A stretch of 33,149 nucleotides of DNA from an uncultured Opitutales bacterium. Lineage in GTDB: Bacteria; Verrucomicrobiota; Verrucomicrobiia; Opitutales; UBA9783. The notes under the pieces were generated by a model. That model did no database searches. It was not told where the DNA came from and saw only the letters and a program-made list of their open reading frames with translations. A program made the translations under genes and the position numbers. Positions 29,143 to 29,748 of this stretch are shown here, in pieces (the stretch's first letter is position 1; every line of letters begins with the position of its first letter). Location: positions 1-33,149 of the forward strand of contig CAZDSI010000011.1 in assembly GCA_964508215.1 (NCBI GenBank), in the 5' to 3' direction.

Positions 29143-29748
29143 TTAGGGGGTTTTTTGTAGTGATTGAAAAGTGTTGTAGATATCATAGAATGCTTTGATA
29201 AGGTCTGCCGTAAGAGTTTCCATGTCGGGTTTACTATCAGCAATTTGCTCGAGTGTTGTCGCTATATTACGAATGTCTTCGGGCCAGCTATCGGTTGTCC
29301 CGTAAACGTTTAACCCAAATCCGATAACCCATTGAACGGCTTTCCCTTCTTTGAGTTTCGATTCCACTAATAGGCCTGCCAACTTTTTATTTTCATATAA
29401 AATATCATTTGGCCATTTGAGCTTAAAAAGTTTCTTGTAGGTTTCGCATAAACACTGGCAAGCAGCGCTGTTCAGCTTCAAACCTAGATCAGCCAGCTTC
29501 TCGGGATATATTGGGGTGTTAAACCCCAAGCTTAAGTAAAGGTTCCCTTCGGATGCACTGAACCATGTTCGACCTTTGGTTCCACGGCCGGCGGTTTGTC
29601 GCCGCGCCAAAACCATAATCGGCCCTCGTCCCTGGGCCAAATAATTAAAAGCCTGTGTGTTTGTACTGTCGGTTACATTCAGCAGTTCCGCAGGCCATAA
29701 AACGTTTCGTTTGAGAAGCGCTTTATGAAATTTTTCTTTGTCAAACAT
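29143..29748 (-). CDS. birA: Biotin-protein ligase, catalytic domain only (no HTH, no C-terminal domain)
   Basis: TDSTN, QTAGRGTKGRTWFS, KWPND, KLAGLLVE and IGFGLNV; ATG at 29748 lies 2 nt after the ffh stop. Confidence 0.93.
   Translation of the reverse strand: MFDKEKFHKALLKRNVLWPAELLNVTDSTNTQAFNYLAQGRGPIMVLARRQTAGRGTKGRTWFSASEGNLYLSLGFNTPIYPEKLADLGLKLNSAACQCLCETYKKLFKLKWPNDILYENKKLAGLLVESKLKEGKAVQWVIGFGLNVYGTTDSWPEDIRNIATTLEQIADSKPDMETLTADLIKAFYDIYNTFQSLQKTP

Follow-up and report, generated by a model that had tools for sequence, protein, structure and literature searches.

A core-only biotin-protein ligase with threonine at the R118 position in a Puniceicoccales-like verrucomicrobium, probably an ordinary housekeeping enzyme

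BirA of E. coli is a 321-aa class II biotin-protein ligase (BPL), which carries a helix-turn-helix (HTH) and a C-terminal domain in addition to its catalytic domain. The changes R118G and R118S, those of BioID and TurboID respectively, make this enzyme abortive (PMC9253107), and E. coli BioID loses nearly all of its activity once its C-terminal domain is removed (PMC9253107). The class I BPLs are monofunctional, have no HTH and display a loop of the GRGRxGR type (PMC2384007). Two systems are more compact. Fisher et al. reported a functional chlamydial BirA of class I without the conserved C-terminal region, the sole BPL of its genome (PMC3459881); on streptavidin blots it gives a single chlamydial band (PMC3459881). 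MicroID and ultraID consist of residues 2-171 of the A. aeolicus BPL (19.7 kDa) and keep adenylation although they have no C-terminal domain (PMC9253107).

We analysed a stretch of 33,149 nucleotides, hereafter the window, which contains a short BPL gene. The features needed for its description are the following:

29143..29748, (-) strand: BPL gene, catalytic domain only; 201 aa, 22.7 kDa, pI 9.0; ATG start
29755..29761, (-) strand: Shine-Dalgarno-like AAGAAGG, 6 nt upstream of the BPL ATG and within the end of ffh, read directly from the sequence
29569..29589, (-) strand: biotin-binding-loop motif GRGTKGR, residues 54-60, counterpart of G115-R121 (GRGRRGR) of E. coli BirA
29578..29580, (-) strand: Thr57, codon ACC, at the position of R118 of E. 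coli BirA
29575..29577, (-) strand: Lys58, at the position of E. coli R119; the proposed compensating basic residue
29383..29385, (-) strand: Lys122 in NKKLAG, counterpart of the catalytic K183 of E. coli
29751..31094, (-) strand: ffh (SRP54), directly upstream of the BPL gene; TIGR00959, 541 bits

An alternative TTG start is present at 29769, 21 nt further upstream, and would give a protein of 208 aa. The ATG is favored because of the N-terminal alignment of the family described below, of the 201-aa gene call made on two contigs, and of the Shine-Dalgarno-like site.

The only Pfam match in the window BPL is PF03099 (E 1.1e-18, 67.8 bits against a cutoff of 21). The protein also scores 130.8 bits with TIGR00121 (birA_ligase, cutoff 83.1) and aligns by HMMER to E. 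coli BirA (PDB 1bia) at E 1.3e-19, so that its identity as a BPL, proposed in a previous sequence-only reading, holds. In the latter alignment ‘rqtagrgTkgrtwfs’ is placed over ‘yqqagrgRrgrkwfs’ without any gap; Thr57 is thus R118 in the published E. coli numbering, which confirms the Thr codon (ACC, 29580-29578) that the same reading had put at this place. The equivalence of Lys122 with K183 was derived from this alignment and the published numbering. Compared to the consensus GRGRxGR, the loop GRGTKGR keeps six positions out of seven, the fourth being Thr. The ligand-binding residues DSTN, Q112 and KWPND, as well as the catalytic lysine, are present in the alignment columns. Fourteen columns are invariant over 52 BPLs (S28, Q51, G54, R55, G56, K111, P113, N114, D115, K122, G125, G143, G145 and N147); from the alignment, they span the known biotin/ATP site and the putative catalytic lysine.

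The prediction by AlphaFold2, from an alignment of 52 sequences, is a compact and complete fold (pLDDT 94.1, pTM 0.90) with a confident final helix at 176-198; the confidence is lower (~82-83) only around the biotin-binding loop, in the blocks 51-70. With Foldseek, this model compares at a query-normalised TM of ~0.8 with the BPL catalytic domains from S. aureus, E. coli, A. aeolicus and M. tuberculosis (E 2e-15).

On the other hand, nothing of the two accessory domains was found. The protein begins ~22 residues before the DSTN motif and displays no Pfam match for the HTH (PF08279) nor for the C-terminal domain BPL_C (PF02237). Its match to TIGR00121 covers the profile positions 5-173 of 235, which indicates that the C-terminal part is absent. 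A C-terminal domain hidden by a frameshift or carried by a separate gene was also considered and ruled out: stop codons occur in all three frames 3’ of the BPL stop, the convergent neighbour gene ends at 28995, and a tblastn search of the 33-kb window, queried with the last 75 residues of each of 11 full-length homologues, gave a best E of 0.13, with no match near the gene. Pfam, the downstream stops and tblastn agree in this respect with the sequence-only reading, which had seen no HTH, no C-terminal domain and no continuation in other frames. As judged from these alignments, the window gene is a real, conserved, catalytic-domain-only BPL, class-I-like.

The comparison with the described ligases shows where this enzyme stands. 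It shares with E. coli BirA the catalytic fold, ~30-34% identity and a loop aligned without gaps, but not the HTH and C-terminal domains; for the class II BirA equivalogs NF008847/8 it scores 107-112 bits, below the cutoffs of 293-362. It resembles the class I BPLs of M. tuberculosis, P. horikoshii and A. aeolicus (TM 0.7-0.83; HMMER E 3e-18 to 2eay for the A. aeolicus enzyme) by being monofunctional and without HTH, whereas these keep a C-terminal domain of ~50 aa and an Arg at the position 118. The closest architecture is that of chlamydial BirA, a protein of ~190 aa with neither HTH nor BPL_C, which also comes from a host-associated bacterium of the PVC superphylum; in addition, a homologue from a Chlamydiae MAG (L072, 175 aa) carries GRGT as the window BPL does. 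Membership in the chlamydial equivalog NF004607 (PRK05935, 190 positions) is nevertheless ruled out by the score, 63.8 bits against a cutoff of 219, and the window BPL groups with a Puniceicoccales family: the architecture is the same, the lineage is different.

A word-indexed search for homologues found no relative above ~40-43% identity, and each match was longer than the window BPL. The orphan status suggested by this search was a sensitivity artefact, exposed by an exhaustive HMMER search which recovered short relatives of 206 aa (50% identity), 193 aa (47%) and 199 aa (40%). A profile made from four short relatives gathered 17 proteins including the query, to which P0121, found by the exhaustive search, was added. 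These 18 proteins of 181-214 aa score 225-335 bits (335 for the window BPL), the next protein being a 327-aa BirA at 167 bits. The motif QTxGRGTxGRxW is found in 18 out of 18, with a PF03099-only architecture and identities down to 35%; those members that are named belong to Puniceicoccales MAGs. On a neighbour-joining tree they form one clade, entirely short and entirely Thr. As GRGT occurs in all 18, Thr at 118 is a fixed trait of this clade. In a strain 99% identical to the window (L001, a contig of GCA_030154545.1; run X1) the BPL gene differs by four nucleotides, all of them synonymous.

Another assembly contains P0125, an 86-aa fragment whose sequence matches residues 1-83 of the window BPL at 83% identity and runs out of frame just after GRGTK; from this alignment, it is a frameshifted copy of the same BPL gene.

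Such a frameshifted copy, together with the frameshift that splits bioB in the same window, could lead one to regard the short BPL gene as a truncated pseudogene or an assembly artefact. We consider this extremely improbable: length and motif are kept among 18 relatives with identities as low as 35%, the second strain encodes an identical protein in spite of the synonymous changes, and the predicted fold is confident and complete. The conservation of the family and the restriction of the variation to synonymous sites effectively refute it.

Thr at position 118 is not a property of this family only. Among the top 150 representatives retrieved by the exhaustive search, most display GRGR (120), followed by GKGR (9), GRGT (4), GRGQ (3), GRGK (2), GKGT (1) and GRGS (1), and three of the four GRGT are family members. 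A wider scan, in which one genome per species (185,579 species) was searched for DNA encoding QTxGRGTxGRxW, gave at least 119 species-level loci from more than 12 phyla; the 119 loci listed all lie in ORFs matching the BPL profile at E < 1e-5. The cultured bacteria concerned include Asaia, Gluconobacter, Roseomonas, Neoroseomonas, Rhodovarius, Sorlinia, Sutterella wadsworthensis, Vampirovibrio chlorellavorus and Phycisphaerales ac7. The MAGs among the matches listed belong to Gemmatimonadota, Aminicenantes, Dehalococcoidia/Chloroflexota, Planctomycetota, Verrucomicrobiae/Chthoniobacterales, Pelagibacteraceae, Rickettsiaceae, Chlamydiae, Eubacteriales and others. Most of the listed GRGT genes complete at their 3’ end (86 of 106) have a normal class I length, with room for a C-terminal domain, and the example from Asaia has PF02237. 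When positions 118 and 119 are masked, a crude neighbour-joining tree of the catalytic cores divides the Thr sequences into 31 separate all-Thr clades and requires residue 118 (Arg, Thr or Ser) to have changed at least 25 times. Altogether Thr118 is found in roughly 1-4% of the natural BPL clusters sampled, and a few have Gln, Lys or Ser. The expectation of the sequence-only reading that other natural ligases have a non-Arg residue at this site is thus borne out: R118, the position modified in BioID, is not universally conserved among natural BPLs. Since these carry Thr, Gln, Lys or Ser there, a non-Arg residue at 118 should not be taken by itself as a sign of promiscuity. In the papers searched we found nothing specific about natural R118T or GRGT ligases, nor biochemical data on any GRGT ligase.

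Besides, one protein of 1011 aa (P0197) contains two BPL-like loops, GKGTYGREW around residue 493 and GRGTQNRSW around residue 784, both with Thr at 118; this protein is possibly a fusion or a tandem arrangement of BPLs.

The scan also revealed a link between Thr118 and the architecture. Among the listed 3’-complete GRGT genes, 20 of 106 are core-only. PF03099 without BPL_C was confirmed by Pfam for individual GRGT genes, namely that of the Chlamydiae MAG already mentioned and examples of 180 aa from Acidobacteriota, 194 aa from Verrucomicrobiae, 193-217 aa from Phycisphaerae and 195-197 aa from Pelagibacteraceae. In a GRGR control only four genes of 99 are short, and two of these four are seemingly broken. 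For this association of Thr118 with C-terminal loss (20/106 against 4/99), the Fisher odds ratio is 5.5 with p = 9e-4, phylogeny being ignored in this test. Gln, Lys or Ser at 118 are likewise enriched in the short BPLs outside the family: in the protein sets, 5 of 11 short BPLs have one of them, compared with 19 of 324 long BPLs. We did not find the association of Thr118 with C-terminal loss described in the papers searched, and it is the only part of this work that might be new.

A second pattern concerns the neighbouring position. After Thr118, the residue 119 of the 119 loci listed is R in 51, K in 28, H in 18, Q in 14, Y in 3, N in 2, G in 2 and A in 1, so that 97 of them (82%) have R, K or H; Leu, Phe, Met, Ile, Val and Trp never occur. 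As a control for Arg118, metagenome contigs were scanned for QTxGRGRxGRxW, and the 120 matches all corresponded to BPL genes. Residue 119 is there R in 31, L in 27, Q in 10, H in 8 and F in 7, with others; about 40% are hydrophobic. The Thr set comes from species genomes and the Arg control from metagenomes, i.e. from different collections, and the clades from the neighbour-joining tree; counted by clade, the two sets compare as follows:

Thr118 clades (31): basic majority at 119 in 25, hydrophobic majority in 0
Arg118 clades (31): basic majority at 119 in 11, hydrophobic majority in 12

We did not find this pattern, Thr118 with a basic 119, described in the papers searched. The position is known to matter: in the truncated A. 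aeolicus BPL, the single change L41P, at the equivalent of 119, is sufficient to render the enzyme abortive, which indicates that this position controls the retention of the adenylate (PMC9253107). We therefore infer that at least one basic side chain may be needed in the pair 118/119, and that Lys58 would fill this role in the window BPL. The covariation is correlative; it suggests a compensation rather than a loss of function.

These data bear on the main proposal of the sequence-only reading, for which Thr was the mark of a naturally leaky enzyme: Thr57 would weaken the closure of the loop, biotinyl-AMP would escape and label the nearby lysines, and the cell would tolerate or use this labelling. 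The presence of Thr at the very position where R118G and R118S make BirA abortive is in line with this proposal, and so are the activity of the truncated A. aeolicus core as a promiscuous labeller (PMC9253107) and the enrichment of Thr118 in ligases without C-terminal domain (20/106 listed against 4/99). However, GRGT is not only invariant in the family but also widespread, including among the housekeeping-type BPLs of many free-living bacteria in culture, for which an uncontrolled acylation would be costly; Thr118 is mostly accompanied by a basic residue at 119; and the core-only BirA of chlamydiae gives a single biotinylated band (PMC3459881). The reading itself had named a wide occurrence of GRGT among ordinary specific ligases as a refutation of its proposal, and this is largely what we observe (at least 119 species, more than 12 phyla), the specificity of these ligases being presumed. 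A naturally leaky ligase thus appears quite unlikely to us.

Arg40 is changed to Gly in microID and ultraID, and ultraID has L41P in addition; these engineered enzymes are smaller than the window BPL (19.7 versus 22.7 kDa) and their promiscuity is demonstrated. The window BPL shares with BioID and TurboID a non-Arg residue at 118, but the engineered mutations of the latter were introduced into an enzyme that had evolved with Arg118, whereas the Thr of the window BPL is ancestral to its clade and paired with Lys at 119. R48 of the P. horikoshii BPL is presumably the equivalent of R118. The titles of the PDB entries 2dxu and 2ejg mention R48A crystals that still hold biotinyl-5’-AMP and bind BCCP.

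We rather consider it probable, from conservation and covariation, that the window BPL is an ordinary, specific housekeeping ligase and not a naturally promiscuous one. It would be a monofunctional core-only enzyme of a Puniceicoccales-like verrucomicrobium of ~40% GC, co-transcribed with ffh. Biotin and ATP would be converted to biotinyl-5’-AMP beneath the GRGxxGR loop, and biotin would then be passed to the lysine of BCCP through the chemistry of the conserved Lys122. The basic side chain closing the loop over the adenylate would probably be supplied by Lys58 instead of R118, and with this compensation the enzyme is expected to be specific. As it has no HTH, no repressor role is expected.

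The core-only enzyme must nevertheless differ somewhere from BirA, since BioID without its C-terminal domain is nearly inactive. One may thus ask whether Thr118, the basic residue at 119 and the loss of the C-terminal domain are mechanistically linked, and define a recurrent, so far undescribed subclass of BPLs with a different closure and a looser hold on the adenylate; we regard this as unlikely, if worth stating. If it were true, natural core-only BPLs, the window enzyme included, would offer stable, pre-adapted scaffolds from which very small proximity-labelling tools could be made. Independently, the pattern at 119 and that of C-terminal loss could guide the mutagenesis of 118/119 and the choice of natural core-only scaffolds. 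The particular tool value that the sequence-only reading drew from compactness is not supported, core-only BPLs being already known (chlamydial BirA) and microID and ultraID being smaller (19.7 kDa). The appeal of the window protein at 22.7 kDa as against 19.7 might, speculatively, be that of a naturally evolved and presumably stable core.

The genomic neighbourhood also points to a housekeeping gene. The stop codon of ffh lies only 2 nt before the BPL ATG on the same strand, so that both genes probably form one operon. The adjacency of ffh and BPL recurs in the closest relative, P0282 (L124), and the pairs P0279/P0370 and P0121/P0383, whose contigs match in length, suggest that it is present in at least two and probably four family members. 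One wastewater RNA-seq contig of 191 nt (29588-29778) spans the ffh/BPL junction, which lends weak support to a co-transcription. The Ffh protein of the window shares 66% identity with a protein of a Puniceicoccales MAG, followed by Opitutales and Opitutaceae; the GC content of the window is ~40%, and near-identical DNA is found in metagenomes from anaerobic digesters, wastewater, sludge and hot springs.

The window also encodes a full-length NTP/NDP exchange transporter, i.e. an ATP/ADP translocase (13813-15363, (+) strand; TIGR00769, 548.6 bits for a cutoff of 387.2). ATP/ADP translocases are a hallmark of obligate intracellular bacteria. Found in a Puniceicoccales-like verrucomicrobium of digester and wastewater metagenomes, it suggests that the host may be a symbiont of protists.

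These features are relevant to another possibility, that the short BPL is a specialised second ligase: a canonical BirA would also be encoded in the genome, the short paralogue serving a particular carboxylase or condition. Full-length BirAs do occur in Puniceicoccales MAGs, e.g. P0335 (335 aa), and genomes with two BPLs are known, such as that of Lactococcus lactis (PMC4861984). However P0335 was obtained from a different metagenome sample than the window BPL, and the association with the essential ffh, seen in at least two and probably four members of the family, resembles that of a housekeeping gene. A redundant BPL is also less likely as the host looks reduced or host-associated from its ATP/ADP translocase. 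We thus hold a specialised second ligase for rather unlikely, though it deserves to be kept in mind. The gene for the BCCP substrate is not in the 33-kb window.

The state of bioB bears on whether the host makes or imports biotin. This gene is split (17230-18164, (-) strand) into an ORF of 220 aa (TIGR00433, 250 bits, profile positions 3-220 of 307) and one of 91 aa with the BioB C-terminus. One base is missing from a T-run near 17503-17506: the sequence reads ATTTGATT, and ATTTTGATT would restore the frame. Public contigs end exactly at this frameshift with a depth of 3-5, and the split may reflect a sequencing error or a pseudogene.

Several other features of the window can be mentioned. In the interval between glyA and ffh, a segment of ~608 bp (31558-32165), flanked by AAAAGCA direct repeats, is missing from the 99%-identical L001; it could have arisen by the insertion of a small mobile element or as an indel mediated by the repeat. 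This segment is single-copy in the window and spanned by an ORF of 286 aa (31322..32182, (-) strand) without NCBIfam match. Four genes for Nudix hydrolases lie within 12 kb (15430-15939, 18267-18758, 19849-20457 and 26133-26780), of which one is NudE-like and one resembles the ADPR-responsive repressor NtrR. NCBIfam gave no match either for ORFs of 704, 439, 162, 221, 478, 433 and 333 aa; unmatched ORFs are at 26881-28995 (+), 24738-26057 (-), 24230-24718 (-) and 3133-7848, and these long ORFs are lineage-specific proteins beside housekeeping genes. Finally, a ComEC/Rec2-related ORF of 379 aa (8244-9383, (-) strand) contains the N-terminal competence domain and scores 94.8 against a cutoff of 190 for the full-length equivalog; it may be a truncated ComEC.
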